This document shows, piece after piece, positions 43,677-64,000 of a DNA stretch of 64,000 bases (position 1 is the stretch's first letter; the number at the start of each line of letters is the position of its first letter). The stretch comes from a bacterium (GTDB lineage Bacteria > Hinthialibacterota > Hinthialibacteria > Hinthialibacterales > Hinthialibacteraceae): positions 1,088,001-1,152,000 of the forward strand of contig CAXXMV010000008.1 of the NCBI GenBank assembly GCA_963662285.2. The letters run 5' to 3'. The position numbers and the translations under genes are program-made. The notes below the pieces were generated by a model. It ran no database searches. It was not told the DNA's origin and saw only the letters and a program-made list of their open reading frames with translations.

Positions 43677-44266
43677 GAGAATAATTCCTCCTCAGTCAAC
43701 CCTTCCTGCCGGGCGTATTTGCGTAGTGTTTTGAGCGCACGATGAATACGGGTATTAACTGTAGAAACAGGCAATTGCAATAACTCGGCCACGCTATCGC
43801 TTGATAGACCTTGTATCATTCGAAGCGTGACAATATCTCTATATTTAGGCGATAACCGATCCACTAATCCTCGAACCTTAACTTGAATCTCCTTGCGTAA
43901 AGATTCTCTTCGGGGATTAGGATCGGATGTTTTAATCTCCAGGTCAGCGTCTTCTAATATTTGATCGAGAGAAACGTTCATTTGCTTTTTCCGCTTATTG
44001 AAATCTTTATAAGCCAAGTTGCGGGCAATTTGAAAAAGCCAGGGTCCTAAAGGACGGCAAGGATCAACTTTTCCATGAGCGCGACAAGCGAGAAAAAAAG
44101 CTTCCTGGCTCAAGTCTACAGCTCTGTCGCGATCATGAATGAGATTAGCTGTAAAATTAACTACCGGAGCGAAATAATTCCTCGCGGCGGCCTCAAAAGC
44201 CCACCGTTCACCCCGGCAAAAACCGGCGCTGATTTCAAGATCGGTATACGAGATGTTAGATTCCAC
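43673..44266 (-). CDS. ECF RNA polymerase sigma factor
   Basis: AVDLSQEAF, PWLFQIARN, region 4 LPVSTVNTRIHRA. Confidence 0.9.
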   Translation of the reverse strand: MESNISYTDLEISAGFCRGERWAFEAAARNYFAPVVNFTANLIHDRDRAVDLSQEAFFLACRAHGKVDPCRPLGPWLFQIARNLAYKDFNKRKKQMNVSLDQILEDADLEIKTSDPNPRRESLRKEIQVKVRGLVDRLSPKYRDIVTLRMIQGLSSDSVAELLQLPVSTVNTRIHRALKTLRKYARQEGLTEEELFS

Positions 44267-44513
44267 TTATTCACCCTACGCACATACTCGTCCTTCCCCA
44301 GCCATTGATTATTCATTCATACTTATTTAATCAACATAAATACTAGAAATCATATTGGCTTTCACATTAATATATCCGGCAGGGAGAAGAAATATTTCAA
44401 TTTTTATGAGGATTTTTTTAACAGCAACTTGAAAATCAGTAAGTTGTATTTTAACAGCAAGTTACAGACATTTAAATAAGAATAACCGATGAGTATAATA
44501 ACATATATTCTAT

Positions 44514-46034
44514 TTATTTTTCTTCTCTGGAGAATAAGAGACTGCGATTAGACAGAAGGCTTTGAAATAATATTTTACCCTGAATGACATATACTATCCC
44601 AGGATTTTCGAGGGGTGATTCTCCAGGCAATGCCTGAACAGGGGCGCCGATGATGACATCACATAATCCATCGCCCTGAATGTCGCCTAAACCGGCAATT
44701 GAAGCTCCAAAAGCGCCAAATGGTTGGGTTCCTTCTACTACTACATATTCAACAGGAGATAATTCACCAATACACATGGGTTGAGTATTGATTATATCAG
44801 GCCATTTCTCGCCGCCAAATAAAAAGATTACCCGACCAGCATGCACTTTGTCGCGTACCGAATCCATAGGTAAGCCAATTGCTATGTCAGCGTATCCATC
44901 TCCGTTGACGTCGCCAACTCCATTGGCAATCTGTACGCTGTTATTTGCATTTTTAATAACGGTTCCCATCTCAGGCGTGAGAGAATGCAGGTCCATTTTA
45001 CCCGGCAAATCTTTACCTCCCCATAACAGGAAGACAGATTGATCTTCCATACCAATAAGAAGATCGGGGAAGCCATCACCATTCACATCACCAGCGTTTT
45101 TAACAAAACGATCAGCATGATCAATAACGATATCGTATTCAGCAGTGTCAACCGATTCTCTACCTTTGATAAGAAAGGCGCGTCCTTTATTATCAGCGCC
45201 TCCTTTGGAGGCGACAATAACTATGTCCGATAATCCATCTGCATCAATATCGATATCACCGCAAACCTTTTGTCCCGCCCTGGTTCCAGCTATTTCACGA
45301 ATGGAGAAGGTATTATCACTTGGGATGCGGGAATCTATTTGAGCAGGGAGTTGTGAATTTCCGTAAATTACAGTAACACGGCAAGCATCATATTCTGTTT
45401 CTTTGGTTCCACTTTTAACTTGAATCTTTTGCGATTTGGGATTTCCAAAAAGAACATCGCTGAAACCATCGCCATTAAAATCACCCGCTCCGGCTACGGA
45501 AAAACCAGTATGAGTGACTACTACGCCTGATTCATTCAGATCGTTAATAGGAATCAAGCGTCGGGATTTTGAAGAACCAAAGATAATATATCCAGTTTTC
45601 AACACAGCAGATCCGATGACGATATCATCGAATCCGTCACCATTGACATCTTTCACACAATCAACCGCACTGCCAATTCGGGACTCAAAGCGTCCCATGA
45701 TTGTCACGCCATCAAAAGAGTTACTCGATAAATCAATTTCACCCCGGTCACGATTCAATTGAGCGCCCGAAACAATAAAAACAGCTCCATTATTATATTC
45801 ATTGCCGAAATCAACCGGTTCAAAGGAGGGAGCGCCAATTATTGCATCCCGGTAACCATCGCCGTTAAAATCACCGGCGGAAGCTACAGAAGCGCCTATT
45901 TCGTAATTTATTGTTCCAGGAAAGGTTATGCGAACCGCCCCTAGAGCATCAATTGTGATAACCGGCCCCGCCCAAACGGAAGAACCGATTAATAACAAGA
46001 TTATTAATGTAAAACAAAATTTATTGTTATACAA
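44514..46034 (-). CDS. Secreted FG-GAP / integrin-alpha beta-propeller repeat protein
   Basis: Signal peptide and seven GD(F/V/I)NGDG-x-x-D...IGAP-like repeats. Confidence 0.9.
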   Translation of the reverse strand: MYNNKFCFTLIILLLIGSSVWAGPVITIDALGAVRITFPGTINYEIGASVASAGDFNGDGYRDAIIGAPSFEPVDFGNEYNNGAVFIVSGAQLNRDRGEIDLSSNSFDGVTIMGRFESRIGSAVDCVKDVNGDGFDDIVIGSAVLKTGYIIFGSSKSRRLIPINDLNESGVVVTHTGFSVAGAGDFNGDGFSDVLFGNPKSQKIQVKSGTKETEYDACRVTVIYGNSQLPAQIDSRIPSDNTFSIREIAGTRAGQKVCGDIDIDADGLSDIVIVASKGGADNKGRAFLIKGRESVDTAEYDIVIDHADRFVKNAGDVNGDGFPDLLIGMEDQSVFLLWGGKDLPGKMDLHSLTPEMGTVIKNANNSVQIANGVGDVNGDGYADIAIGLPMDSVRDKVHAGRVIFLFGGEKWPDIINTQPMCIGELSPVEYVVVEGTQPFGAFGASIAGLGDIQGDGLCDVIIGAPVQALPGESPLENPGIVYVIQGKILFQSLLSNRSLLFSREEK

Positions 46035-46266
46035 TGTCCATCCCTGCCAGATATGGATTGTAAGTACAAGTTATAGAGTGGTTTTATCACGAAAACCATA
46101 TAAAGTAAATAGGAAACAGATAAATGCAACTTTATAGTCAGTATATCATCAATCACCATAACCACCAGGAATGACATACTTTATGTTATTTTTATCAACC
46201 AGATCAACATAAACAAGTTTAACTCTGATTAAAAAACCGCCTTTATACTGATGAGTTGGAAAATAC

Positions 46267-46309
46267 ATTAAGGATAATTCACAAAAATCTTTCGTGAATT
46301 ATCCTTAAT
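46267..46309. terminator. Perfect AT-rich hairpin downstream of the pilin gene
   Basis: 16-bp inverted repeat ATTAAGGATAATTCAC...GTGAATTATCCTTAAT. Confidence 0.5.
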
Positions 46310-46423
46310 TATCCTTAATGTAATATTGTCCTATAAACGTTTTCGGCTTATCACCGTTTCATCTTAATTAATCGTACAAAAAACAGTTATGACTATAGTC
46401 AAGAGTTATTGGTAATGAGGCGA

Positions 46424-47059
46424 TCAGTTGCCGATTCGAACTATATCTCCATCGCTCATCAGACCATTACTTGAATCATAAGGCAATCCACGCAAAACGC
46501 CGGGATTCCGACCTATTCCCATAGCGCCATCAGGTCCAATACTGATTAGAGCAAATTCCTTTTCTTTCAATGGCCTTAAGTTATAAAGCGGCGCGTTGGC
46601 TGCTTTATAAAGATCTATGCCAAAATCTTCTCCACGACCCGGTTCATTATCAAAATAGATATAACTTCTTCCCTGTTCATTCGCACTGAATCCAACATTC
46701 TTTTCACGTGGGCTGAATGGATCCTGGGGTAAAGAAGACATATAGGAAACTGGTGATGTCAAAGGATAGAATGGGCCTTCAAAAGTAGTATATGGCGGTT
46801 TAGGCCCCACGCTGCTGAAACTATTCTGCCAACGCGGTATAGCTATATCGGCATCATCATCCCAGAAGTCAAGCAGCATAACATTCTTATCCATAGTGAA
46901 CATTTGAATAGATGAAGAGACATTGCGCATATCCGCTTGGGTACGTGCAATTTTTGCTTTTAATTGGGCATTGAGAAAATTGGGTACGGCAATGGCGGCG
47001 AGAATGCCGATAATCGCTACGACTATAAGTAATTCAATTAAAGTAAAAGCGCGCTTCAT
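46424..47059 (-). CDS. Type IV pilin/pseudopilin-like protein
   Basis: RA|FTLIELLIVVAIIGILAAIAVPNFLNAQ, LTSPVSY, SIGPD, YDSSNGLMSDGDI. Paralog of 42088-42720. Confidence 0.87.
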   Translation of the reverse strand: MKRAFTLIELLIVVAIIGILAAIAVPNFLNAQLKAKIARTQADMRNVSSSIQMFTMDKNVMLLDFWDDDADIAIPRWQNSFSSVGPKPPYTTFEGPFYPLTSPVSYMSSLPQDPFSPREKNVGFSANEQGRSYIYFDNEPGRGEDFGIDLYKAANAPLYNLRPLKEKEFALISIGPDGAMGIGRNPGVLRGLPYDSSNGLMSDGDIVRIGN

Positions 47060-48074: not shown

Positions 48075-48788
48075 ATGTCACCCTCTCCCATGCCAACCGG
48101 AACCGCAAGGCCGCCATGGCGCAAGATCTCTTTTGGGAAACATTTTCTCATCTGCACAAAAAGTTTTCCGCGCTTTGGAGGGCGAACCTTCAAGGGAATG
48201 CCTCGTCGGTTCAAGCGCACCATTAATGTGGTGGACTCAACCACGATCCAGCTCGTCCACAACTGCATCGACTGGGCGCGGCATCGCCGCAAAAAAGCCG
48301 CCGCCAAACTCCATCTCAGTCTCAACCTTCAGTCGTACCTTCCCCGCTTCGTTTTGGTAGACAGCGCCCGTCACAGCGATCCCAAAAAGGCCTGGCAACT
48401 CTGCGCCCTCATGGGCCAGGGCGAAATCGTCGTCTTCGACAAAGCCTACGTCGATTTCAGCCATCTCAATGACCTCAACCAACGAGGCGTTTTCTGGGTC
48501 ACAATCGCAACGCTATTTTGTGGCAAATTTGGACAGCGCTCCTACTTTATATTTTGCTGCGTTTTCTTGTCTTTTCCAACAGTTGGAATGCCGGGTTCAA
48601 ACGGCTCTTTTGCTTGTTGCGTTCCTGCGTCTGGGATACCTTTTCCATAATCAAATTGCTTGCATCCTGTGGGACAGCACGCGGTGCGCCACGCCATGTC
48701 GCTACGGCGCACCACGCATATTTGCCTGGTTTTATCCCCTTTGAGGAGAATTAGGCAATTGGCTCAGTCGATCCTATGGGACAGCAGT
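48075..48788 (+). pseudogene. Second IS4 family transposase remnant with internal deletion and right terminal inverted repeat
   Basis: VDSTTIQL, KKAAAKLH, VFDKAYVDF, then a jump to C-terminal QIWTALLLYILLRF. IS4-type end CTATGGGACAGCAGT at about 48774-48788. Confidence 0.8.
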
Positions 48789-49461: not shown

Positions 49462-49699
49462 ATTTGATGCACTGATTTTTCTAATTCTTCATATCTTCTT
49501 ATGAGTCAATATTTTATAACGTAATTCACATGATGTCAATAGTTTATAGCGATATTTTTTTGTGACGTCTTTTCACGTTGAGTCACTTTTTCGTTCATGA
49601 AACGCCGCATAATCTGAGTCAAAAATGAGTCAGTTTATATTCCCATTAAATCAAAAATCGGCTATATTATTGTAGAGATTCCAATTGAAAGGACCGGGG

Positions 49700-50734
49700 A
49701 TGTCTCATCTCACTAAACGAAAAGGCTCTTCATACTGGCATATTCGCTACACGCATCCCATAACAGGAAAAACGACTTTTAAGAGCACGAAATCAAAAGA
49801 ATATAGGCAGGCTTTGAGTCTGAAAAAAGAATTCGATAAAAAGATGGCGAAAGGGGCCATGGCGGAGGTAGTAGGAAGCAAAGGTACGCTTGCTGAACTC
49901 GCCGAGAAATATTGTGAGTGGGTGAAAGATAGACGATCACCGAAATGGTCGATGCAATTGGGAAGAATGATCAATAATGAGATTTTGCCATTTATCGGTA
50001 AAAATACCCGGATTACAAAAATCACGAAAAACAAACTCTATTCGTTTCAGACCTACTTGATCGACAGAAAACTTTCGAAACGTACCGTTAATCTGTACGT
50101 CGGAACCCTTCGCGCAATGTTGAGAAAAGTACCGGAATGGTATTCCACATTAAGAGATTGGAATCCTCCACGTATTGAGGAACTTCGTTTGGAAGTAAAA
50201 CCGCCCCGGTTCTTTTCGGAAGAAGAATGCGATCACCTGCTACATGTTGCGAAAGAATATAGCGAGCCCATTTATCTGACAGTAGCGTTTGCCCGGTACT
50301 GTGGTTTCCGCAAGAGCGAAATCATGAGGCTAAAATGGGAAGACATCGACCTGAAGGAGAATCGCATCATGGTTGATACAAGAAAGAACAAACACTTTCT
50401 TGGCGTTCCAATCCATCCAAAACTTGCTGAGATTCTGATGACGATTCCCAAAACTGAACGAGAAGGGCAAGTCATTAAAAAGAAAGGCGAGGGATTTCGC
50501 CTCGATATCCGTTACCCTTGGGAACAAGTTCGAAAAATCGCTGGCGAAAAGCATGGCGTTCGGCAGGATTTGGGATTACATGGACTCCGGCATTCTTTTG
50601 GCGCTCATCTCGCTCAAAAAGGAGTTGGGATTCACGCCCTTCGCGAATTAATGGGTCATAAAGATCTTCAGGTCACACAACGATACGCTCATCTCAATGA
50701 TGAACGGTTAAGAGAAGATATTGAAAAACTGTAA
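49700..50734 (+). CDS. Tyrosine recombinase/integrase
   Basis: Arm-binding-like N-terminus (YWHIRY), catalytic R (GFRKSE), HGLRHSFG, LMGH, TQRYAH. Confidence 0.93.
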   Translation: MSHLTKRKGSSYWHIRYTHPITGKTTFKSTKSKEYRQALSLKKEFDKKMAKGAMAEVVGSKGTLAELAEKYCEWVKDRRSPKWSMQLGRMINNEILPFIGKNTRITKITKNKLYSFQTYLIDRKLSKRTVNLYVGTLRAMLRKVPEWYSTLRDWNPPRIEELRLEVKPPRFFSEEECDHLLHVAKEYSEPIYLTVAFARYCGFRKSEIMRLKWEDIDLKENRIMVDTRKNKHFLGVPIHPKLAEILMTIPKTEREGQVIKKKGEGFRLDIRYPWEQVRKIAGEKHGVRQDLGLHGLRHSFGAHLAQKGVGIHALRELMGHKDLQVTQRYAHLNDERLREDIEKL

Positions 50735-52794: not shown

Positions 52795-53046
52795 TCACAC
52801 CGACTCCTGCGCCCCGGCTGGACAACCAGCCTTGCGGGCCAGGCCATCTGGATTGGTACCGTCGTTGGCCAGTTCGGGAAAAGCCGCAGGGGCGAGTAAC
52901 GCGGCGACCAGACCCTCGAAGAGGCGACCGCGAGCGCCGGACGGCTTGACGATGGCCGTCCGCCAGAAGCCGAACCCTTCGATCACGCCGGGCGTGGTGA
53001 GGGCGGGGTCAGACCGGCGCGGTAAATCATCGAGACCGGCCCTCAT
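52795..53046 (-). pseudogene. Remnant of a STAND (nSTAND1-like) NTPase gene
   Basis: With a 1-nt frame correction it reads RAGL(I)PALTTPGVIEGFGFWRTAIVKPS...LFEGLVAALLAPAAFPEL, resembling the segment just after Walker A in nSTAND1 proteins. Confidence 0.5.
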
Positions 53047-54563
53047 GTTTCCGCCTTGTCGATCTGATCGAAGCCCTTTGTTTCGCTGGAGCGTTCAAGG
53101 TCGTACATCGCACGCTCATGCCGCCCAAGAACCCAGTTTGCGTATCCTATGTAATAGAAATCCTCTTTCGTATTCGGCAGCATTTTCGCGAGGTGCTCGG
53201 CCGTTTGCAGGGCATCTTTACACCCCGCCCGGCGCTCGACGATCAGCCGCTCAAACCAGACATAGAGCCGGTCCGGCAGAAGTTCCGTCACGCGATTCGC
53301 AATCGGCACGGCTTCTCCGTACTGACCCGTTTCGAGAAAGTATCTGACGAGGTGACAGCCCAATTCAGCGTCTTCGGAATGTTCCTTCCAAGCCTGGAGC
53401 AACAGTTCGCGAGCCTCCGTATGACGCCGCATGTCGACCAAGACGTTGGCTAAATTGATATAGGTAGATGGCGTCGCCTGGCGCTCGCGCACTTTTTTGA
53501 AAAAGATCGCTGCCGCCTGCTCACTTTGCCCCATTCCGGCTAAACCGAGAGCCAAAGCCTCCTGTGCCTGTTCTCGTTCGTCCTCGGTCAGATAGCGCCC
53601 GGTCTCGATCACGCTGCAGGCCTTGGGAAGATCCACGACCTTTTCGCCCGCAAACAGTTCGTTGACCACCACGCCCGTGGCGGCCGCCGGATCGGACGGG
53701 TCGCGGCGTAAAGCCTCCCGGTACAACTCCGCCGCTTCGGCGAACAACCCCTGGGCCTGCCGAACGTAGCCCAGCGCGCCGAAGAGGCTCTCCTCACATT
53801 CGGGATGAAGCCTTAAGGCGGTCAACGCCTGAACCGATTCGGGCAACCGTCCCACCGCGATAAGGCAAACCGCCCGGGCCACATAGGGGTAATAAAACGT
53901 TTCCCCCTCGTATTCGTTCTCGACCATTGCGGTGAAATACTCGATTGCCTTCAATGCTTGCGCATAATCGCCTTGCTCCAACCCGAGTTTGCAGACGCGG
54001 ATGGCCTTGTCCAACCGGGCATAGAGAATATTGGACCGTTCCGTGTCGCGAGGAACGCGCTGCATAAGCTCGCGGTCGACCCGTTCCATCAGCGGCAAAC
54101 GTGGCGTGTCGGCGACCAGTCCAAAAAAGGGAACGCCGACGTCCTGACACACGCGGGCGACGGCGTCCTCCATTTGCGCTCGCGCCTCCACCCCGCCGCC
54201 GAAAAAGTGATAGCGGATAGCGCGGAGACCGGCATACGGACCCGGCCAGAGATCGATGTCGAGCACCGAGCGTTCCACTAAGGGAATAATCCGTAGACCG
54301 CCGTCGACGTGCCGATTCAGAGCACACTCGACTTCCGCCGCCGTAAACGGGGAACGCAGGCTGTTGAGGGACACGACCGGCAGGAAGAGCGTGCACTTGC
54401 CGACCCGGTCCCGAAGATAAGAAGTGATCGTCTCGCCTCCGGGAATTTCATCCCCCTCGACGGAGTAATCCCAAACATTCAGGCTTTGCGCCTGAAGCCG
54501 GGTCAACAGCCGCGGCACAAACGTATCGCGGCTTGAAAAAGATAAGAAGGTCTTCAACTCCAT
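53043..54563 (-). CDS. TIR domain + TPR repeat protein
   Basis: TFLSFSSRD, FLPVVSLNSLRSPFTAAEV (candidate catalytic Glu), IIPL, then multiple TPR-like repeats (ALGYVRQAQGLFAEAAELYREALRRDP). Confidence 0.85.
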   Translation of the reverse strand: MELKTFLSFSSRDTFVPRLLTRLQAQSLNVWDYSVEGDEIPGGETITSYLRDRVGKCTLFLPVVSLNSLRSPFTAAEVECALNRHVDGGLRIIPLVERSVLDIDLWPGPYAGLRAIRYHFFGGGVEARAQMEDAVARVCQDVGVPFFGLVADTPRLPLMERVDRELMQRVPRDTERSNILYARLDKAIRVCKLGLEQGDYAQALKAIEYFTAMVENEYEGETFYYPYVARAVCLIAVGRLPESVQALTALRLHPECEESLFGALGYVRQAQGLFAEAAELYREALRRDPSDPAAATGVVVNELFAGEKVVDLPKACSVIETGRYLTEDEREQAQEALALGLAGMGQSEQAAAIFFKKVRERQATPSTYINLANVLVDMRRHTEARELLLQAWKEHSEDAELGCHLVRYFLETGQYGEAVPIANRVTELLPDRLYVWFERLIVERRAGCKDALQTAEHLAKMLPNTKEDFYYIGYANWVLGRHERAMYDLERSSETKGFDQIDKAET

Positions 54564-54577
54564 AAACGCAAGTATCC

Positions 54578-55801
54578 CTAGTTGGAGGGGGGAATCAGGA
54601 CGGTTGGCGTCTTTATCTTAGGCTGCGGCGTCACGCCGCGGATTTGCCGCAAGAATGCCGCATAGACGTCCGGCTGTGTGGTCTTCACGAAGCGGAAGAA
54701 CGCCGCATAGTACATGGTTTGCCGAGCCGCATGATAGACGGGCGGGTTACCCCCTTCCAGTTCCTCCATCTTGTCGGAGAGCCGGCGGCTCAGATCCGGC
54801 AACATCTCGAAGTAGTTGGCGTCGATGTACTCATTTACCAGTTTTGTTTGCTCATCGAATTCGATCCTATTGGTATCGTCTTCGGAAAGGTTGTCGCCCA
54901 AGAAGGCCTTCCGTTTCTTAACGCGATCCATCAGTTTTTCAATGGTCTCAGGACGATCAAAATAATCGATCAGGTCTTGTTCGTCGAATCCTTCTTTTAA
55001 CCGCCAACAAGCCCAATAGGGACGCCCCCCGAATGTGAGCGTCATGACTTTCGATATCTTTTCCAAACGCATGCTCACCCCCTCGGGATCATCAGTGATG
55101 ACATATGAGTGCGGATCCCCCCCCTGGTAGAGGTCGCTCAACACGTTGAAATCGGAGCGGTTACGTTCGACATTGCGGGGATATTCGCCTGGGGCTTTCA
55201 TAACTCCGTCGCCCGCCGTCAGGTTCTCCGACGCCACGGGGTGGAAGGCCAGCAGGTCGGTCTGCATCAGGCGCAGTCCCAAAAACGTGTCCTGTATGGC
55301 GGCATGGTAGTTCATAATCCTTTGCCCCTCTTTCATCCGCCTTGCAGTGTCTTCCTCGTCGATGAGCTGGCCGAACAGCGTAAACAGCGCGTCCTGTTCG
55401 CCATTGGCGAATTGGGCGACGGGCACGGCGAGCCAGTCGTAAACCGGCAGCGTCACCGTATAGGTGACGTCTTTGAAAACGGTTGCCTGAAGCCGTTTCC
55501 CATCGGGCTGCCTGGCATCATAGCGAAGCGCCGTCACTTTGCTGCCGTCCAACGGCTTCGCAACAGCCCCGAAGGCGACACCCCCGACCCCTGAACAGAA
55601 GCCGAACGACTTGATTCCTTGCGCGGCTTTCATGCTATTCACTAACGGTTTCGCAATCGGGTTGGCAAAGGAGTACATACCCGCCATAATTTGCGCCAAG
55701 GACGGCAGCGCAATAACGGCGCCAACCACGCACGCCCAGATCCATTTCCGCCAAATCGATTTCATGAATCGTTTGACATAACCATCACTCTCATTCTTCA
55801 T
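54578..55801 (-). CDS. Hypothetical exported or membrane-anchored protein
   Basis: GGGAG RBS before ATG 55801, hydrophobic N-terminal segment (WIWACVVGAVIALPSLA), GC-rich codon usage like the TIR gene 14 bp downstream. Confidence 0.65.
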   Translation of the reverse strand: MKNESDGYVKRFMKSIWRKWIWACVVGAVIALPSLAQIMAGMYSFANPIAKPLVNSMKAAQGIKSFGFCSGVGGVAFGAVAKPLDGSKVTALRYDARQPDGKRLQATVFKDVTYTVTLPVYDWLAVPVAQFANGEQDALFTLFGQLIDEEDTARRMKEGQRIMNYHAAIQDTFLGLRLMQTDLLAFHPVASENLTAGDGVMKAPGEYPRNVERNRSDFNVLSDLYQGGDPHSYVITDDPEGVSMRLEKISKVMTLTFGGRPYWACWRLKEGFDEQDLIDYFDRPETIEKLMDRVKKRKAFLGDNLSEDDTNRIEFDEQTKLVNEYIDANYFEMLPDLSRRLSDKMEELEGGNPPVYHAARQTMYYAAFFRFVKTTQPDVYAAFLRQIRGVTPQPKIKTPTVLIPPSN

Positions 55802-56155
55802 CGCATTTTCTCCCGTCGCGAATCCCAGTTTTGTGACCACCGGTTATGATGTAACATGCCGTGTGGTGCGTTACAAACGGAAAGGCCTTCAATCGGGATT
55901 TTCCATTTAACCTGAGAAATCTCACTGATTTTTTTAATACCATCTAATTCCCTCAAAGAAAATACTCAATGTCAAGTTCTCTTCGAGAATTTCACTCGTT
56001 TTCATGAATCCAAGGGCCTATAAATTCTGTCAATTCAAAAAAATAGACGCACTTCCACAGTTTCAATCTCAAATATTCTCAATTTATGCTATTCAAATCC
56101 GAATCATCACACTGGAATCGATTTGAGTCGGTGAATCTTCTGAAGAACCTTTCAA

Positions 56156-56318: not shown

Positions 56319-57934
56319 GGTTCCTCGGAAAAATCTGTGGGTAAAAAATGAGTTTTTTTAGGCATATGGGAATGCTCTGAATTGTCGAATGATCTTCACA
56401 CGGAGAAAAATCGCGGAAGAAAAGAACGGTTTAAAGTTGCCTTGGATTTACGGCTGATTTTATTGGGTATCGAGATTGACGGAGGCTTGTGGATTCTGTC
56501 CCCCCAATTGGGGCAAGATGATCAAATGCTTTAATCGCTACAAAAAAATAACATGAAAAACTGGTTAAGAAGAGAGAGGCGAAGGGATTAATGAAGAGGA
56601 GGTAGAAAGAGACATCCGGTCCCTTATCCTGAGAAAATGGGAGTCGCGAACAACCATTGATCGGGAGGAAACCGGATGCATCTGAAAACCATCCTCAATC
56701 GCGTGCATAAAATCAAGGGATACGTGTACGGATCGATCCAGTTTGGGGAGTGGAACGGCAAAACGGCCCTGGAGGTCGAAATCCATCCTCGGGCGGGAAG
56801 CCGGGCTATGTGCTCGGGGTGTGGAAAGAGGAGGCCGGGATACGATAAGTTGGAGAGACGTCGCTTCGAGTTCGTCCCCTTGTGGGGCATCGCCACCTAT
56901 TTTCTATACGAAATGAGGCGCGTGAATTGCCCCCAGTGCGGCGTGAAAGTCGAACAGACGCCGTGGGCGGATGGGAAGCATGAGTTGACGGGGACCTATC
57001 AGTGGTTTCTGGCGGGCTGGGCGAAACGACTGAGTTGGAGTGAGGTCGCAGAAGCGTTCGAGACGAGTTGGTACAACGTGTTTCATTCCGTGGAACGGGC
57101 GGTGGAGTGGGGCCGCCGTCATATGGACTTGAAGGGAATTACGGCGATCGGTGTGGACGAAATGCAGTGGGGAGGCGGGCATCGATACGTGACGGTGGTG
57201 TACCAAATCAACGAAGGGTGCAAGCGGCTGTTATGGATTGGGCAACACCGAAAAGTAAAAACCTTGTTGCGATTTTTTCGATGGTTTGGAGAAGAACGTT
57301 CGGCCCAGTTAGAGTTCGTATGCAGCGATATGTGGAAAGCGTATCTCAAGGTGGTGGCCAAGAAAGCGAATCAAGCCATTCATATCCTGGACCGGTTTCA
57401 TCTTGTGGCGCACCTCAATAAAGCGATCGACGAAGTGCGGGCGGGAGAAGCCCGTGCGTTGAAAGCCAAGGGATGCGAGCCGATCTTGAAAGGAAGCCGC
57501 TGGTGGTTTCTGAAACGGCCGGTCAATTTGACGGCCAAGCAAGTGGAAAAACTGGCGGACGTACTGCGGTACAATCTGCGCACGGTGCGAGCGTATCTAT
57601 TGAAAGAAGAATTCCAGTTTTTCTGGGAATACCAATCGGCATGGTGGGCGGGGCGATTTTTGGATCAATGGTGTACAAAGGTCATGCGTTCGCGAATCGA
57701 ACCGATGAAAAAGGTAGCAAAAATGTTGCGGAGTCATCGAGACCTGATTTTGAACTGGTTTCGAGCGAAAAAGAGTTTTCCTCGAGTGTGGTAGAAGGCT
57801 TGAACAACAAAGCAAAATTGACAACGAAAAAAGCCTATGGTTTTCGAACCTTCCGAAGTTTGGAAATCTCTTTATATCATACACTTGGGAAACTTCCTGA
57901 ACCGGAATTTACCCACAGATTTTTTTGACGAGGC
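56319..57934 (+). mobile_element. ISL3 family insertion sequence
   Basis: 27-bp imperfect terminal inverted repeats: GGTTCCTCGGAAAAATCTGTGGGTAAA versus reverse complement GCCTCGTCAAAAAAATCTGTGGGTAAA. No target duplication evident. Confidence 0.85.
56676..57928 (+). pseudogene. ISL3 transposase with a single frameshift near the C-terminus
   Basis: Zinc finger CSGC/CPQC, IGVDE, CSDMWKAY, DRFH; continues in another frame as SSVVEGLNNKAK...AYGFR. Shift at the A-run at about 57768-57772. Confidence 0.88.
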
Positions 57935-57985: not shown

Positions 57986-59092
57986 ATGGTTATGGAGCAA
58001 AATTCTAGTAATCCAATTGTTGGAAATATGGTTCTGTATTGCCTTCTGCGCCGCTGGAACAGTGATCGTAAAGAGTCACAGTTCCTGTTGATAAAAAAAC
58101 AGGACTATTTTACCTTTCCTGCAACCAAACTTCGCGCAAATGAAGACTTATACCATGCTTTAATCCGTGCATTGGATGAAGATTTGAAAATAAAATCTGG
58201 AAAATATTTCATTGAGGAAGAACTACCGATGATTCCATCCTCTGGTACAAGTCCTCGTCCAAAGCATGGGGATGGACTCCCTAAAAATTGGTTCTTATAT
58301 CCGTTGGTTATGTCCTACCATGAAGACGCTCTTGATGCGATACCGCTCGATCAGATCAACTGGATGACAATTGATGAGATTATTGATCAAAACAAGGAAC
58401 CCAATATCCTAACTATTGCACAAATGATCAAGAAGAATCGATCCGATCTTTGCTCAGAACCTCCTAAAACGCCTTCAATGGATGCCCTTGCTTGTGCCTG
58501 GTCTGCACAAAATAGTCAAGAAGTACGCATTGTACGTCAAAATGATATTAAAGGGATTCTTAACATAGGCAATCGAGCCTTTAACCTTAGGGTGGCAGAT
58601 CCTTATTTACCCTATCATAAGCAAGGATTGGGATTCACCTGGAGTTTCTTTACCCCGAAAGATAAACAGGATTTGCATGTCCATGGTTTGCCCTCCGTAG
58701 AAATTTATGGGATTCTTGAAGGAGAGTTGCTTCTGTGGTACAAACCCATGAATCAAAGGGGAGCGCGATCTTGGAGTTTTCAGTTACTTCGCGCCGGGGA
58801 TTGGGCGGAAGTTGGCCCTCTTCAGTGTCATTTTGCCTGTTGGCTGACCAAAGATGGGCTAGGAACAGTAATAAAAGCCGCAGGAGCAGGAGAACTAGCC
58901 GGAGTAGGCCGTTTAGGAATCTCTGGCAAAACAGTATGTCAATGGAAAGATCATGCTGGAAATGAACAACATTGCAGCAATTATGGTCACTGTTTAATCC
59001 ATCCGATTATGGAAAAACTGATGATCGAATATGGAAAACCTTTTGAAGATAGAAAATATGATATCATTCGTATGTTGTACGATCAAATATAA
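57986..59092 (+). CDS. Degenerate Nudix-fold domain fused to a cupin domain
   Basis: FPATKLRANEDLYHALIRALDEDLKI aligns to the Nudix box but lacks key residues. Cupin motifs DLHVHGLPSVEIYGILEG and LRAGDWAEVGPLQCHF. Cys/His-rich tail. Confidence 0.65.
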   Translation: MVMEQNSSNPIVGNMVLYCLLRRWNSDRKESQFLLIKKQDYFTFPATKLRANEDLYHALIRALDEDLKIKSGKYFIEEELPMIPSSGTSPRPKHGDGLPKNWFLYPLVMSYHEDALDAIPLDQINWMTIDEIIDQNKEPNILTIAQMIKKNRSDLCSEPPKTPSMDALACAWSAQNSQEVRIVRQNDIKGILNIGNRAFNLRVADPYLPYHKQGLGFTWSFFTPKDKQDLHVHGLPSVEIYGILEGELLLWYKPMNQRGARSWSFQLLRAGDWAEVGPLQCHFACWLTKDGLGTVIKAAGAGELAGVGRLGISGKTVCQWKDHAGNEQHCSNYGHCLIHPIMEKLMIEYGKPFEDRKYDIIRMLYDQI

Positions 59093-59106
59093 GAATATCG
59101 ATAAGG

Positions 59107-59517
59107 ATGCATTTAATGTCAAAACCATTTCGCCTCTCGGTTAAAGCCATCGTTCGCAATGAAGAAAACGAGTGCCTTGTTATTCGCCGGTCTAACTATT
59201 CAAAACATAACGCTGGGAGATGGGATTTCCCAGGTGGGAAAGTCGACGTAGGTGAGAATTTCGATGCTGCTCTTATCCGTGAAATTGGCGAAGAAACATC
59301 GATTGAAATTAAACTGACAGGTTTTGCCGGTTGTGGTCAATCGCAAGCCCCTGAAAATACAGTTATTTACCTTTTTATGAATGCGATGGCTCTAACCCAA
59401 GAGGTTGTATTAAGCGAAGAGCATACGGAGTATCAGTGGGTTCCTCTGTCTAATCTTCTAAATGTAGATATGGGGGATCAGTTTAAAGATATTTGTGAAG
59501 TTCTTGCAGCAGAGTAG
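59107..59517 (+). CDS. Nudix hydrolase
   Basis: Intact Nudix box WDFPGGKVDVGENFDAALIREIGEETSI; LSEEHTEYQWV. Confidence 0.92.
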   Translation: MHLMSKPFRLSVKAIVRNEENECLVIRRSNYSKHNAGRWDFPGGKVDVGENFDAALIREIGEETSIEIKLTGFAGCGQSQAPENTVIYLFMNAMALTQEVVLSEEHTEYQWVPLSNLLNVDMGDQFKDICEVLAAE

Positions 59518-59541
59518 GATAGATGAAAGGTTGACAACATT

Positions 59542-62500
59542 ATGAATTCCGAAAAACTAAAAGAATATTCGGATAAATATAAAGAAGATCTTTTCCCAAA
59601 ATTTCAAATTTACTCATCTACGCTTGAGTGTATATTAAAATCTATTGCTAATGATACTGATCCTTTAGCATTTGTCAGCGCAAGACCAAAGAGTCTTGAA
59701 TCCTTTATTGAAAAAATTAATAGAAAAGGGTATGAAGAACCATTTAAACAAATGACAGATATGTGTGGAGCAAGAATTGTTGCCCATACGATTGATCAAA
59801 TAGATCAGATAAGAGAAATCATTGAAAGAGAATTCATTATTGACCAGAAGAACTATGTTGATGCAATAGAAAGATTATCAAAAAATGAATTTGGGTATCT
59901 TTCTGTTCATTATATTGTGCAATTAAAAGCAGGTACTATATTGGGCATTGTTGTTCCAAATGATATACTGCCAAATGATGAAATACCATTTAAAGCAGAA
60001 ATTCAAGTTAGAACATTAAAACTAAAAGATTATTTGGATCAATATAAAGATCTTTTCCCAAAATTTCAAATTTACTCATCTACGCTTGAGTGTATATTAA
60101 AATCTATTGCTAATGATACTGATCCTTTAGCATTTGTCAGCGCAAGACCAAAGAGTCTTGCATCCTTTATTGAAAAAATTAATAGAAAAGGGTATGAAGA
60201 ACCATTTAAACAAATGACAGATATGTGTGGAGCAAGAATTGTTGCCCATACGATCGATCAAATAGATCAGATAAAAGAAATCATTGAAAGAGAATTCATT
60301 ATTGACCAGAAGAACTATGTTGATGCAATAGAAAGATTATCAAAAAATGAATTTGGGTATCTTTCTATCCATTATATTGTGCAATTAAAAGCAGGTACTA
60401 TATTGGGTATTGTTGTTCCAGATGATATACTGCCAAATGATGAAATACCATTTAAAGCAGAAATTCAAGTTAGAACATTATTGCAACATACTTGGGCAGA
60501 TACATTCCATGATCGTTTGTATAAAAATAATATCAAGAAACCTAAATCCCTTGAACGTGATGTCGCAAGAGTGGCTGCCATTCTTGAAGAAGCCGATAAC
60601 CTTATTTCCAAAGAAACAAGTATGATCGATGACTTTATTGTTGATATTGGCGCATATCTGTCAAAGAAAGAAATTGAAAAAGAAATCGATATACTGAAAA
60701 ATGTTTTTTCATTGGATGAAGATGTAAAGAATAAACAAAATCTAGCCCTACGTATATCTAAACTATATCGCGCTATATTTGAATGGGATCATATTATAGA
60801 TTTTCTAAATAAAACAAATATTTATCAATCTAATCCAAAATTACTTGCAGAATTAGGTAATGCGTATTGTGAAAACTACTCTCTCACACCGAATGATGAC
60901 AACTATGATAAAGGCATAAAGTTACTGAATGAATCTATTGATTCAAATAATTCTGATCCTTTATCACTTTCCCTATTAGCTCAGGCCTATATTAGAAAGA
61001 GAGGAGAAAATGATAAAACAAAAATGCATTTCAAAAGAGCATTTGAACTGAACCCGAAAAATCCTTACTATTTTTCAAATTATCTCGTTTTTGAATTGTC
61101 TCATTCTTCATTTTTGCTACAACCATTTATCAATCTAGCTATAGATACATGTCAGCAACATATTGAAGCAAGAATTGAATTACCACAAGCCTATTTGACA
61201 ATTGGACGCCTTTCTTTATTGTTATTAAATGACATATATACGAATGACAATAAAGATAGAATCGAAAAAGTAAAAATGGAACATTTTATTAATCAAATAA
61301 TTGAAAATTATGCTCTTGCTATTAAAATGTACTTAGAAATGGATTCTTGCATATGTTCATCGGTTATAAATAATGAAATTATCTTCATAAAAGAAATCAA
61401 AGGTAAATTATCATCTTTACGTAACGATCCTAAAAAAATATTAGAGTCTATTTTATTTATGCTCATTATTGCAAATTATCTTAAGAATAAAGAATGTCCT
61501 AAATGTCAAGTTGATAATATTGAATTAAATAAAATGAAACCCGAAAATGAATTACCTTATGAGGAAAATAAAAAAATTCTGTTTGTTGTAGGAGGATGTT
61601 CAAAGGATATTTCATCTGATATAAAGCATTACAAACCAGTCTTAGAAAATATACTTAAACATTTTAATGGGATTGTTATTGGAGGTGGTACAACATCTGG
61701 AATAAGTGGTATGCTAGGAGAAATTGCCTCAAAAACAATAAATGATCGAAAGTATATATTATTGGGTTATCATCCTTCAAGACTTGGAACTGATTATACA
61801 GTTGATCGTGATAATTACGACGTACTAGTAAAAACAAAATCAGAAGATAACTGCCTTTTTGACTCTCTACAGGCTTGGATCGATATTCTGGCCTCAAATA
61901 TTCCAATTGAAAATATAAGAATTTTAGCCATTAATGGAGGGAATATTACTTTACAAGAATGTTTTGTTGGAATATCTTTTGGTTCTTTAACTGGTGTTGT
62001 AAAAGGGAGTGGTCGTTCTGCGGATATTATTTTGTCTAATCCTCGATGGAGTAAAATGGATAATATAATTCCGCTTATCGATGAAGATATGACAATAAAT
62101 GCATTTGTAAATCAGGGTCAATCAAAATTAAATGTAGAACTAATAGATTCAATATCTAAATGTGCTCATGAAAAATTTATCGAACATTGTGGAAGTGAAA
62201 AGTATGAAAAATCATATCGTCCATGGGAAGACTTAAGTGATTATTACAAAGAAGCCAATCGAAGGCAAATTCGATATGCTGAAGTAATATTAAAGGCAAA
62301 TGGTTATCAGATGGTTGAAATTGGAGATGAGAAACAAGTAAAAGTTTATTCTTTCACTGATGATGACTCTAAACGTGTTGAAGAAATGTCAAAAATGGAG
62401 CATGGAAGATGGGTTCTTTCGAAAATAATGGATAAATGGGTTGAAGGAAAACCCAGGGATGATAGCAAGAAAATTCATCCTGATATAACCGGATGGGATA

Positions 62501-62592
62501 ATTTAGATCAAAATACAAAAAATAAGGATATAAACGCTGTTAAATCATGGCCTGAAATCTTTGCGAAAGCTGGGATTGAGATACGTCGCTAA
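59542..62592 (+). CDS. RelA/SpoT-type nucleotide pyrophosphokinase (two tandem copies) + TPR + SLOG-like + RyR domains
   Basis: Synthetase motifs ARPKS, TDMCGAR, FGYLS(V/I)HY and EIQVRT occur twice, then LQHTWA...HDRLYK. TPR-like FKRAFELNPKNPYY; SLOG-like FVVGGC...IGGGTTSGISG; RyR-like EHGRW...RDDSKKIHPDITGWDNL...KD. Confidence 0.85.
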   Translation: MNSEKLKEYSDKYKEDLFPKFQIYSSTLECILKSIANDTDPLAFVSARPKSLESFIEKINRKGYEEPFKQMTDMCGARIVAHTIDQIDQIREIIEREFIIDQKNYVDAIERLSKNEFGYLSVHYIVQLKAGTILGIVVPNDILPNDEIPFKAEIQVRTLKLKDYLDQYKDLFPKFQIYSSTLECILKSIANDTDPLAFVSARPKSLASFIEKINRKGYEEPFKQMTDMCGARIVAHTIDQIDQIKEIIEREFIIDQKNYVDAIERLSKNEFGYLSIHYIVQLKAGTILGIVVPDDILPNDEIPFKAEIQVRTLLQHTWADTFHDRLYKNNIKKPKSLERDVARVAAILEEADNLISKETSMIDDFIVDIGAYLSKKEIEKEIDILKNVFSLDEDVKNKQNLALRISKLYRAIFEWDHIIDFLNKTNIYQSNPKLLAELGNAYCENYSLTPNDDNYDKGIKLLNESIDSNNSDPLSLSLLAQAYIRKRGENDKTKMHFKRAFELNPKNPYYFSNYLVFELSHSSFLLQPFINLAIDTCQQHIEARIELPQAYLTIGRLSLLLLNDIYTNDNKDRIEKVKMEHFINQIIENYALAIKMYLEMDSCICSSVINNEIIFIKEIKGKLSSLRNDPKKILESILFMLIIANYLKNKECPKCQVDNIELNKMKPENELPYEENKKILFVVGGCSKDISSDIKHYKPVLENILKHFNGIVIGGGTTSGISGMLGEIASKTINDRKYILLGYHPSRLGTDYTVDRDNYDVLVKTKSEDNCLFDSLQAWIDILASNIPIENIRILAINGGNITLQECFVGISFGSLTGVVKGSGRSADIILSNPRWSKMDNIIPLIDEDMTINAFVNQGQSKLNVELIDSISKCAHEKFIEHCGSEKYEKSYRPWEDLSDYYKEANRRQIRYAEVILKANGYQMVEIGDEKQVKVYSFTDDDSKRVEEMSKMEHGRWVLSKIMDKWVEGKPRDDSKKIHPDITGWDNLDQNTKNKDINAVKSWPEIFAKAGIEIRR
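59554..60480 (+). repeat. In-frame tandem duplication of the synthetase domain (465 bp + 462 bp)
   Basis: 59554-60018 and 60019-60480 are near identical, with about ten substitutions and one 3-nt indel by my reading. Confidence 0.92.
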
Positions 62593-62698
62593 TAAATATG
62601 GGAATAAATTTAATTTCCAAAAATTTACATGAAACAATAATGCATCGATAAGGATATGCCAGTCGGCATGAATCTCAGTAGTTATGAGGATCAATATC

Positions 62699-64000
62699 AT
62701 GACCACCTCCGGTAGTGGAAAACGACTGCGACCGGTCATTCGAGTGTTTGTCAGTTCGACGTTCAGCGACATGAAGCACGAGCGGAACGCTTTGGAGGCC
62801 GATGCCTTTCCGAAACTGGAGCAGCTCTGTCAGCGTCATGGGTTTCAGTTCCAAGCCATCGATCTGCGCTGGGGCGTCTCGACTGAAGCTGGGCTGGATC
62901 ACCGAACGATGCAGATTTGCTACGAGGAATTGCGCCGGTCGCAAGAGATTTCCCCGGAACCAAATTTCCTTATCTTGCTGGGCAACCGCTATGGATGGCG
63001 GCCTTTGCCAGAAGCGATCTCACAGAAAGAATATGAAAATCTTCGCAATGCAGCAATGGAATGCGATAAAGACGGCAAGGCTATCATCAAAGGAATAGGT
63101 GACAAGTCAGCCGAACAGATACTCAAAGAATGGTATCGACTCGATGAAAATATTCTCCCCTCCGATCGAACACGGGATGATCCTGACTGCGCGCCACTGA
63201 ACTACATACTGCAATCACGTCTACAAGTTGTTGATGGGCATCTAAAGTATGGTCGTAGGAAGAAAGTCTCAGGCATGGGAGACGAAGACACGCCAGAATG
63301 GATTGCCGTCCAGAATGTTCTCTGGAATATGATCAACGCAGCATTTCCAGCTGATGCCCGTTTCAAAAACCGCTTCAAAAACATTGATGGGAACAAGCAT
63401 ATCCAGGATGTCGACAGTACACTAGACCCCAAGCGCACCGTACCACAGATCGTGCGTTTCCAGGGCTCCGCGACCGAGCAAGAGATATGGAGCGGCGCTC
63501 TTAGCGTCCCACATGCCGATCAACACGTCTTGGCGTTTTTCCGGGAGATCGAGAACCGCGCCGCCTTCTCCGATCCGAAGCAGATTGAGAACTTCGTTGA
63601 TGTGGACCCGTCCGGTACACTCCAGATTGAGCAGTTGAAGGCAGAACTTCGCCTGCGGTTGGGCAGTTCGAATCTTTTCCACAACGAGGCTCCCGTGAGG
63701 TTGGTGGAGGCTCAAGACAATCAGGGTGACCGAAGAGTTGATATCACGACGGATCACCTAGACCAGCTTTGCGCCAATGTGGTAAGCCGGCTGTCAGAGA
63801 GCATCCAGGGCCAGATCGATGAGTATTGGCACAATACCTCACCAGCTTCAATGAATCGCGCCGCTCGCGAACTAGAAATCGAACAGCGCGAATACGAACG
63901 GTTCGCCAAGGAGCGTGGCGGTGAAGAGTCGTTTGTTGGCCGACAAGTCGAGTTGCAGTCTATTCTCGACTACATGGGGAGCGATTCCTGTTGGCCATTG
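62699..64000 (+). CDS. DUF4062 (TIR-like) + NACHT/STAND NTPase protein, NWD1/2-like, 3'-truncated by window edge
   Basis: GAGGA RBS and 434 codons without a stop. IRVFVSSTFSDMKHERNAL, IDLRWGV, LLGNRYGWRPLP, WYRLDEN, SATEQEI; ends at FVGRQVELQSILDY, the usual lead-in to Walker A. Absent from the ORF track. Confidence 0.85.
   Translation, partial: MTTSGSGKRLRPVIRVFVSSTFSDMKHERNALEADAFPKLEQLCQRHGFQFQAIDLRWGVSTEAGLDHRTMQICYEELRRSQEISPEPNFLILLGNRYGWRPLPEAISQKEYENLRNAAMECDKDGKAIIKGIGDKSAEQILKEWYRLDENILPSDRTRDDPDCAPLNYILQSRLQVVDGHLKYGRRKKVSGMGDEDTPEWIAVQNVLWNMINAAFPADARFKNRFKNIDGNKHIQDVDSTLDPKRTVPQIVRFQGSATEQEIWSGALSVPHADQHVLAFFREIENRAAFSDPKQIENFVDVDPSGTLQIEQLKAELRLRLGSSNLFHNEAPVRLVEAQDNQGDRRVDITTDHLDQLCANVVSRLSESIQGQIDEYWHNTSPASMNRAARELEIEQREYERFAKERGGEESFVGRQVELQSILDYMGSDSCWPL

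Follow-up and report, generated by a model that had tools for sequence, protein, structure and literature searches.

The window analysed here is a stretch of 64,000 nucleotides from a bacterium of the Hinthialibacteraceae (assembly GCA_963662285.2, contig CAXXMV010000008.1, positions 1,088,001 to 1,152,000). It ends in four co-oriented open reading frames (ORFs), here called genes 1 to 4, the third of which joins a RelA/SpoT alarmone synthetase to sensor domains of the SLOG and RyR families. An initial annotation of this DNA had described the four genes as a self-contained alarmone circuit. The gene layout that it gave is borne out: the first two gaps measure 14 and 24 bp, and the gap before gene 4 is 106 bp from the second ATG, as claimed, or 91 bp from the first. 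Its domain calls for the four genes were likewise upheld by Pfam, NCBIfam and fold searches. The genes and their notable parts, in window coordinates, are as follows.

57986-59092, forward strand: gene 1, 368 residues; a degenerate Nudix domain (about residues 14-150), a metal-binding cupin (about 215-300) and a cysteine cluster.
59107-59517, forward strand: gene 2, 136 residues; a small Nudix hydrolase (NUDIX E 9.8e-23), MutT/NudG-like.
59542-62592, forward strand: gene 3, 1016 residues; RelA/SpoT (one partial and one complete copy), a TPR-like linker, a TRPM-type SLOG domain and an RyR repeat-12 domain.
59553..60480, forward strand: an in-frame tandem duplication of 462 bp within gene 3, in 2.0 copies (TRF, 97% matches).
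61573..62109, forward strand: the SLOG domain of gene 3, of the LSDAT/TRPM MHR1/2 type and a predicted sensor of an ADP-ribose (ADPR)-type ligand (LSDAT_prok E 1.7e-6).
62134..62589, forward strand: the RyR repeat-12-type domain of gene 3 (RyR E 4.8e-10).
62684 to the window end, continuing to window-equivalent 67309 (L004:5685-10310), forward strand: gene 4, 1541 residues; a DUF4062(NIR)-NACHT-WD40 protein, that is, an NLR-like STAND NTPase.

What might a protein built like gene 3 do? At its N-terminus, Pfam places RelA_SpoT (E 6.1e-34) in two stretches; support for the TPR repeats that follow is weak. The initial annotation had read the two stretches as a doubled RelA/SpoT domain. Both are indeed present, but they stem from the 462-bp tandem duplication and not from an ancestral two-domain design. 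Within their first 11 codons the copies are offset by 3 nt; elsewhere they differ at 6 codons (2 synonymous, 4 not). The first copy ends past the EIQVRT motif, without the next conserved helix; the second is complete. The orthologue P0005 (845 residues, 46-49% identity to gene 3) has one copy, and other family members of about 840 residues are likewise single-copy. Judged by this comparison, the duplication is evidently recent, confined to the source genome and outside the design of the system. Short-read contigs from two sequencing runs break at the repeat, and an 88-nt contig spans the junction of the copies at a depth like that of the flanks. Because the two runs share one sample, which is possibly the source of the assembly, the junction contig is consistent with the duplication and lends it no independent support.

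The catalytic apparatus of the synthetase looks complete. Residues R43, K45, D68, G71, Y114, H118, E148 and Q150 are invariant in 47 aligned family members and are kept in the complete second copy; also invariant in that alignment are the glycine-rich motifs of the SLOG domain and an E-H-x-R motif of the RyR domain. The closest solved relatives of the synthetase domain are RelQ (E 3.5e-12) and RelP. The NCBIfam model GTPPhKinYjbM gave 86.8 bits, far below its cut-off of 320, and we therefore regard the domain as a relative of RelQ/RelP and not as a member of that family.

The C-terminal part of gene 3 was modelled with AlphaFold2 over residues 660-1016, using 59 family sequences (pLDDT, the predicted local distance difference test, 93.7; pTM, the predicted template-modelling score, 0.92). 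The best Foldseek matches of this SLOG-RyR model are structures of the TRPM2 chanzyme and of TRPM2 (8sre_A, E 7.6e-8), several of which were solved with ADPR. Next best is Repeat12 of RyR3 (9ls7_A, E 1.3e-6), solved with ATP, ADP or AMP-PCP. The family profile also aligns with RyDEP, the gp78 protein of phage DyoEdafos, with an hhalign probability of 93.9%. In this alignment, H75 of RyDEP pairs with H954 of gene 3 (the histidine of EMEHGRW) and D117 with D996, and both gene 3 residues are invariant in the 59 sequences. According to a 2026 preprint (PMC13232231), RyDEP hydrolyses two isomers of cyclic ADP-ribose (cADPR), 2'cADPR and 3'cADPR, to ADPR by means of a His75/Asp117 dyad, and RyDEP homologues sequester the same two signals.

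Gene 2 has an intact Nudix box from G44 to I66 (G44-K-V-D-V-G-E50 ... R58-E-I-G-E-E63-T-S-I), the sole deviation from the consensus GX5EX7REUXEEXGU being a serine in place of the penultimate glycine. Its NCBIfam matches are to MutT (E 2.9e-15) and NudG (E 1.4e-13), both under the curated cut-offs. E59, E62 and E63 are retained in 49 of 50 aligned rows of partner Nudix genes. On its substrate, the evidence points both ways. Its MutT/NudG-like character favours a role as an alarmone eraser, since over-expressing these two enzymes in E. coli counteracts (p)ppGpp (PMC7593582). On the other hand, an ADPR eraser is favoured because TRPM2 pairs SLOG with a Nudix domain. By analogy, then, gene 2 may hydrolyse either an alarmone or ADPR.

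To place these two genes in a wider setting, we turned to their relatives. When the single-copy part of gene 3 was used as the query of an exhaustive profile search, 9268 proteins scored E <= 0.001; at E <= 1e-30 there were 567 cluster representatives. The best 150 family matches all have E <= 5.1e-92, and most are about 830-900 residues long and match end-to-end. A scan of species genomes with the single gene 3 protein found nothing; a scan based on the alignment detected the family, and 392 of 453 candidate stretches (one genome per species, bacteria and archaea) were confirmed as relatives. Gene neighbourhoods were then counted in the 80 best loci, extended by 9 kb to either side, in 76 of which the synthetase gene that served as anchor was recognised. 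These loci come from Nitrospirota, Planctomycetota, Bacteroidota, Chloroflexota, Gemmatimonadota, Desulfobacterota, Bathyarchaeia, methanogens and others.

A Nudix gene like gene 2 adjoins the anchor in 43 of the 76 loci, and in 42 it lies on the same strand (22 upstream, 20 downstream). The two genes mostly overlap or are separated by gaps under 45 bp. In 3 of 9 longer family members examined, a NUDIX domain is fused to the N-terminus of the synthetase itself. A search for such genes beside, or fused with, Nudix genes had been proposed in the initial annotation, and both arrangements exist. When the 396 ORFs no more than three genes from an anchor were clustered all against all, only three recurrent neighbour families emerged: Nudix (48 loci), TIR/DUF4062/STAND (47 ORFs, 39 loci) and TrkA_N-RyR (27 ORFs, 21 loci). 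All remaining clusters were found at 5 loci or fewer. In the second family, Pfam finds TIR_2 in 24 of the 47 ORFs and DUF4062 in 11, in addition to STAND NTPase and WD40 signatures. Among 25 proteins of the third that were scanned, 17 have TrkA_N and 16 have RyR; the TrkA_N(RCK)-RyR proteins near the synthetase gene are about 570-900 residues long. The conserved core consists of a Nudix gene and a RelA/SpoT-TPR-SLOG-RyR gene, with putative NADase sensors as frequent but exchangeable partners. That the genes of the window belong together, as had been claimed, is confirmed in this sense: they form a recurrent guild whose homologues co-occur in many genomes, and twice in the source genome.

How close is the tie to the NADase sensors? 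When searched with profiles that were iterated locally, 37 of the 76 loci have a TIR or DUF4062 protein no more than three genes from the anchor, and 47 have one somewhere in the fetched flanks; among loci with at least three genes per side, the former count is 26 of 49. The ORFs concerned (43 within three genes) mostly share the anchor's strand (35), and 22 are at least 700 residues long. As a control, TIR_2 was searched for in about 222 Mb from the 50 genomes of loci L018-L067 and gave 139 matches. In the 0.745 Mb of the loci themselves there were 28 TIR ORFs, against about 0.5 expected at random; this enrichment ratio is rough, because the two counts use different detectors. At the level of genomes, TIR_2 is present in 45 of 50 that carry the synthetase vs. 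4 of 14 control genomes.

These counts bear on the chief alternative to the relay that we propose below. Gene 3 and gene 2 could be an autonomous toxin-antitoxin or abortive-infection pair, with gene 3 as a sensor-fused toxic synthetase and gene 2 as an antitoxin that degrades the alarmone. The TPR, SLOG and RyR parts would then sense a phage or metabolic cue directly, and gene 4, gene 1 and a TIR-TPR gene farther upstream (described below) would be separate defence genes that share the island. The Nudix-synthetase pairing, adjacent or fused, is the only near-constant one; in 29 of the 76 loci no TIR or DUF4062 gene is near; gene 2 resembles the very enzymes that counteract (p)ppGpp (PMC7593582); and DUF4062-STAND proteins are reported, in 2026 preprints, to act as single-gene systems. 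All of this would suit such a pair. Yet the pair leaves unexplained the strong, specific and mostly same-strand enrichment of TIR and DUF4062 genes, the recurrence of the guild at two loci of one genome, and sensor domains of ADPR- and cADPR-binding types. Moreover, if a Nudix enzyme destroys the product of the synthetase to which it is fused, the two would run a futile cycle unless gated. We consider an autonomous pair rather unlikely.

The second locus of the source genome (L016) is on the same contig, at a distance of about 380 kb, and repeats all four components in another arrangement. One strand has a gene 1 paralogue (57% identity), a TrkA_N-RyR gene (L016:3411-5126, reverse strand) and a DUF4062-NACHT-TPR gene, the TrkA_N-RyR gene sitting between the other two. 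The other strand has genes for a TIR-NACHT-TPR protein, a kinase-TPR protein, a RelA/SpoT-TPR-SLOG-RyR protein (26-34% identity to gene 3) and an overlapping Nudix protein. As these identities are low, L016 is no recent segmental copy. At a further locus (L040, on the same contig as L107), genes for a DUF4062-NACHT-WD40 protein, the synthetase, a Nudix protein, a gene 1 homologue, a 74-residue ORF and a TIR protein run in one direction. We also recorded two kinase genes beside synthetase genes: the kinase-TPR gene of the second locus (L016:11746-15843, forward strand; 1365 residues) and a kinase-FGE-sulfatase gene elsewhere (L018:6800-8815, reverse strand).

A candidate sensor of the NADase type is present in the window itself. 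Gene 4 had been called an NWD-like STAND NTPase, which it is, but its N-terminal DUF4062 domain had been overlooked. Pfam finds DUF4062 (E 7.2e-10) at residues 20-118, AAA_16 (1e-13) and NACHT (4.3e-6) at 417-567, NPHP3_N (2.8e-6), HTH_NWD1 (7.8e-6) and WD40 propellers from about 950 to 1520. In two 2026 preprints (10.64898/2026.05.01.722283, 10.64898/2026.09.04.749371), DUF4062 is described as a TIR-like NADase that yields ADPR and nicotinamide and that also serves an Avs STAND protein as its N-terminal effector. Residue E110 of gene 4, a candidate for the catalytic glutamate of the NADase domain, comes after a conserved RYGW motif, and its position resembles that of E97-E108 in the characterised DUF4062 proteins; the likeness is one of position and not of alignment to a characterised protein, in a column loosely conserved in 20 domains.

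Downstream of gene 4, and past the window end, lies a second DUF4062-STAND-WD40 gene, which is split by an IS21 insertion sequence (IS) element (L004:10653-19185, window-equivalent about 67652-76184). The element encodes an IstA-like protein of 523 residues and an IstB of 271 residues, and what is left of the gene is a 142-residue DUF4062 stub and a 1715-residue STAND-WD40 remainder. Further downstream are fragments 79-98% identical to gene 4 (C8:1155676, 1158842, 1164523, 1166579).

On the upstream side, the following features were found.

Near 48075-48650: a DDE transposase fragment (Pfam).
49685..50734, forward strand: a tyrosine recombinase/integrase (Phage_integrase E 7.5e-29), with no tRNA beside the gene.
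53043..54563, reverse strand: a TIR-TPR protein of 506 residues (TIR_2 E 6.8e-11, residues 6-120, plus TPR repeats).
54578..55840, reverse strand: an ORF of 420 residues, transcriptionally upstream of the TIR-TPR gene and separated from it by 14 bp, with both on one strand.
56676..57794, forward strand: an ISL3-family transposase (DDE_Tnp_ISL3 E 2.4e-61), between the TIR-TPR pair and gene 1.

The TIR-TPR gene lies 3.4 kb upstream of the four genes on the opposite strand and had been overlooked in the first description of the locus; its protein is a candidate producer of an NAD-derived signal. The 420-residue ORF, whose sole match is a sub-threshold one to WelO5 (E 0.0043), may be a partner of the TIR-TPR protein.

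The locus had been described as a tRNA-integrated island. This was not confirmed: ARAGORN found 0 tRNA or tmRNA genes in the window plus 35 kb downstream, and Rfam gave 0 at the gathering threshold. The region around the four genes is nevertheless rich in mobile elements, with the ISL3 transposase directly upstream of gene 1 and the IS21 element downstream of the window end. The GC content is also a mosaic (gene 1, 0.41; gene 2, 0.42; gene 3, 0.30; gene 4, 0.52), and the value of 0.30 between 0.42 and 0.52 suggests that parts with different origins came together in the cluster. The cluster at 42088-47059 on the reverse strand, which comprises genes for two pseudopilin-like proteins that bear an N-terminal methylation motif, for an FG-GAP repeat protein, and for an ECF sigma factor and its FecR-like partner, is unrelated to the genes discussed here.

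Such surroundings are relevant to another explanation, namely that the system is a non-immune regulator of NAD/ADPR homeostasis or stress, which would couple ADPR or NAD status to the stringent response under starvation or damage and for which the immune-like neighbours would be incidental. SLOG, RyR, TrkA_N and Nudix all bind common nucleotides, and the family is widespread, archaea included. A regulator of that kind sits poorly, however, with a patchy distribution: among the relatives of the source genome (itself excluded), 5 of 60 have a match, only 1 of them a strong one. It also sits poorly with the mosaic GC content, the IS elements and integrase in the flanks, and STAND, TIR and DUF4062 neighbours that are typical of conflict systems. 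Viral contigs are a further point against it: 19 of them (L167-L185) match the RelA/SpoT domain alone, over query residues up to about 250, and none of these 19 matches has the full-length form or the SLOG-RyR tail. We deem a non-immune regulator improbable.

Gene 1 stands somewhat apart from the other three. Its NUDIX match is weak (Pfam E 3.1e-4; 21.2 bits vs. a cut-off of 21.1), and its AlphaFold2 model (pLDDT 82.8) matches Nudix folds in a fold search, including those of the non-catalytic CFIm25 and NrtR, as well as cupins (RmlC, the cupin phosphoglucose isomerase and FdtA-type ketoisomerases). The family comprises 339 proteins at E <= 0.001, and those listed are 49-67% identical. An alignment of 32 members shows that the cupin metal ligands H231, H233, E239 and H282, together with the three cysteines C318, C330 and C336, are invariant. 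The Nudix box departs from its consensus: REUXEE reads RALDED from R61, and the family consensus is RP..ED, so that RE has become RA or RP and EE has become ED. Some relatives (P0163, P0206, P0246) carry an extra, true Nudix domain. A look-up in a protein atlas returned generic Nudix and cupin clusters only. From its modelled fold, the protein is a candidate nucleotide binder or atypical enzyme. One of its homologues, the 67%-identical P0204, comes from the same source as P0005, the closest orthologue of gene 3; each lists 9408 bases as its longest contig, so the two may be neighbours.

Gene 1 is present in only 2 of 50 synthetase-carrying genomes and at 1 of 80 synthetase loci; it is no general part of the synthetase system. 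Its own neighbourhoods were gathered from 64 metagenome loci, many of them on short contigs, with a recognisable gene 1 ORF in 57. A TIR or DUF4062 gene adjoins gene 1 in 14 of the 57 and lies within three genes in 18; the synthetase lies within three genes in 4, and another SLOG or RyR protein in 8. At least one of these partners (TIR/DUF4062, synthetase, SLOG/RyR) is near in 24 of the 57 loci, and in 10 of the 21 that have two or more genes per side. Gene 1 is accordingly a candidate accessory component of a TIR/DUF4062/RyR network.

These findings weigh on the circuit of the initial annotation, in which the alarmone is the second messenger: RelA/SpoT writes it, SLOG and the inactive Nudix-cupin read it, the Nudix enzyme erases it and the STAND protein senses the trigger. 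The synthetase motifs look active and an intact Nudix gene is adjacent; the degenerate box of gene 1 suits binding, as does its fold, like that of CFIm25 and NrtR; and the product of RelQ-type enzymes regulates them allosterically. But gene 1 cannot be a general reader, since so few synthetase-carrying genomes have it (the 2 of 50 given above). The NADase domains, TIR and DUF4062, that define the neighbourhood receive no role, and the structural relatives of SLOG and RyR bind ADPR, cADPR or adenine nucleotides. We therefore do not uphold the roles of writer and reader as they were assigned, and we think an alarmone-messenger circuit has only a slight chance of being correct; the recurrence of the guild stands, and the Nudix gene is still viable as an eraser.

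Starting from what was observed, namely which domains are present, that catalytic residues are conserved and which genes occur together, we propose instead a Thoeris-like nucleotide relay, in which NADase sensors write a signal, SLOG and RyR read it, the synthetase is the effector and the Nudix enzyme resets the system. We give this relay an even chance of being right; its ligand, direction of signalling, product and phenotype are predicted from domains and gene context. The WD40 or TPR repeats of STAND/NLR-type NADase sensors would recognise an invader and cause oligomerisation; here, the sensors would be gene 4, the downstream twin that IS21 has broken, and the upstream TIR-TPR gene. Active sensors would cleave NAD+ to ADPR or a cyclic ADPR isomer, and the C-terminal half of gene 3, with its TRPM2-type SLOG and RyR repeat-12 domains, would bind the product. 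An NAD-derived signal, ADPR or cADPR, is the more probable one to be read because of the TIR and DUF4062 neighbours, the TRPM2-like SLOG fold and the RyR dyad. Perhaps the RyR domain would also open cADPR to ADPR. Ligand binding would release the N-terminal RelQ/RelP-like pyrophosphokinase to make (p)ppGpp or (pp)pApp, or to pyrophosphorylate another 3'-OH substrate, and the presumed outcome would be growth arrest and abortive infection. Gene 2 would reset the system or set its threshold by hydrolysing the alarmone or ADPR, and gene 1 would be an accessory binder or processor of ADPR-type nucleotides that travels with TIR, DUF4062 and RyR genes.

Several points weigh against this relay. At the source locus, an ISL3 element stands between the TIR-TPR pair and genes 1-4, the GC content of gene 3 is aberrant, and the extra, truncated copy of the catalytic domain might impair the protein. 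The SLOG domain of gene 3 is of the LSDAT and not the ThsA type. SLOG and RyR domains bind adenine nucleotides generally, so by analogy (pp)pApp or ATP is a possible ligand. Gene 2 is closer to MutT/NudG-type enzymes than to ADPR pyrophosphatases; a proline that reportedly marks ADPRases is found as P82 in gene 2 and in only 18 of the 50 partner rows, and it was dropped as evidence. Because 29 of the 76 loci lack a TIR or DUF4062 gene in the fetched flanks, the NADase link would have to be facultative or in trans. Some of the co-location may be non-functional, because defence genes are grouped in islands. In one of the two preprints, human NWD1, NWD2 and NPHP3, the architectures nearest to that of gene 4, had no NADase activity when purified. 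As DUF4062-STAND proteins can defend alone through NAD+ depletion (2026 preprint), gene 4 may be independent. Finally, our literature search found no biochemistry or phenotype for any member of the synthetase family.

No system of this kind, named or tested, turned up in our searches. As the initial annotation had expected, PADLOC (2023) returned no complete system; it gave partial matches only, PDC-S07 for gene 2 and PDC-S33 for the RelA/SpoT domain, and none for the N-terminus of gene 4, the TIR-TPR gene or the 420-residue ORF. The literature search, which did not cover Burroughs et al. 2015 (NAR 43:10633), found no description of such a system; that work reportedly defined the SLOG/LSDAT contexts and may include contexts of this kind. 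The same search found no paper combining toxSAS and Nudix.

If the proposed relay works, alarmone synthesis would be a new effector class in TIR/NADase-based bacterial immunity, immune signals derived from NAD would be tied to the chemistry of the stringent response, and the family would offer a tractable prokaryotic model of how TRPM2-type SLOG and RyR repeat-12 domains read ADPR-type ligands. One set of assays would serve to annotate many genes, because the family is large and spans many phyla. A further conserved but unstudied family, connected with this network, is that of gene 1. A bolder and more tentative version, to which we give somewhat less than an even chance, is that a two-tier relay operates across bacteria and archaea: an ADPR-type signal, made by NLR-like sensors with TIR or DUF4062 heads, would be decoded by SLOG and RyR together, with RyR possibly opening cADPR to ADPR, and would set off an alarmone burst, with the Nudix enzyme as a timer. 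Were this true, the ligand-sensing modules of two animal calcium channels, MHR1/2 with NUDT9-H of TRPM2 and R12 of RyR, would have a single prokaryotic immune effector as their ancestor or as a relative by common descent, and there would be a direct connection between NAD-based immunity and the stringent response.

How does the proposed relay compare with systems already described? It is most readily set beside type I Thoeris (ThsB and the SIR2-SLOG protein ThsA). In both, genes for TIR-type NADases stand beside an effector with a SLOG sensor, and the predicted logic runs from an NAD-derived signal to an abortive response. As for a TIR gene beside the effector, the source locus has a DUF4062 domain in the adjacent gene 4 and the TIR-TPR gene 3.4 kb upstream. 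In contrast to Thoeris, the effector here is a RelA/SpoT pyrophosphokinase and not SIR2, the SLOG domain is of the TRPM/LSDAT type, an RyR domain is added and a Nudix partner is constant. Furthermore, TIR or DUF4062 is often carried on large STAND NTPases and not on small ThsB proteins, and no Thoeris model of PADLOC matched.

With toxSAS and CapRel the system has in common a RelA/SpoT synthetase as the growth-arresting output, next to a small gene for a neutralising partner; here, both roles are predicted. The gene 3 family, however, consists of proteins of about 840 residues with TPR, SLOG and RyR parts, unlike the small single-domain toxins of toxSAS. Its synthetase is closest by sequence to RelQ/RelP, and the partner is a Nudix enzyme in place of a small alarmone hydrolase or protein antitoxin. 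The DUF4062 (NIR) Avs and NLR-like STAND proteins resemble gene 4 in having an N-terminal DUF4062, a central STAND NTPase and C-terminal repeats; gene 4 differs in being NWD-like (NACHT, NPHP3_N, HTH_NWD1, WD40), with no match to an Avs model.

The phage protein RyDEP shares with gene 3 the RyR repeat-12 fold and the conserved His/Asp dyad, and with it perhaps a glycosidase activity. It is, in contrast, a stand-alone anti-defence protein of 138 residues that acts as a cADPR glycosidase or sponge; the RyR domain of gene 3 forms the C-terminal end of a multidomain protein of the cell, with TIR genes nearby, and a role as a sensor or built-in signal processor is the more probable one for it. The TRPM2 channel and chanzyme, lastly, pair an ADPR-binding SLOG fold (MHR1/2) with a Nudix module (NUDT9-H), and the same pairing is found here. 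The setting differs, in that it is prokaryotic, the Nudix module is usually a separate gene and the output is an enzyme in place of an ion channel.

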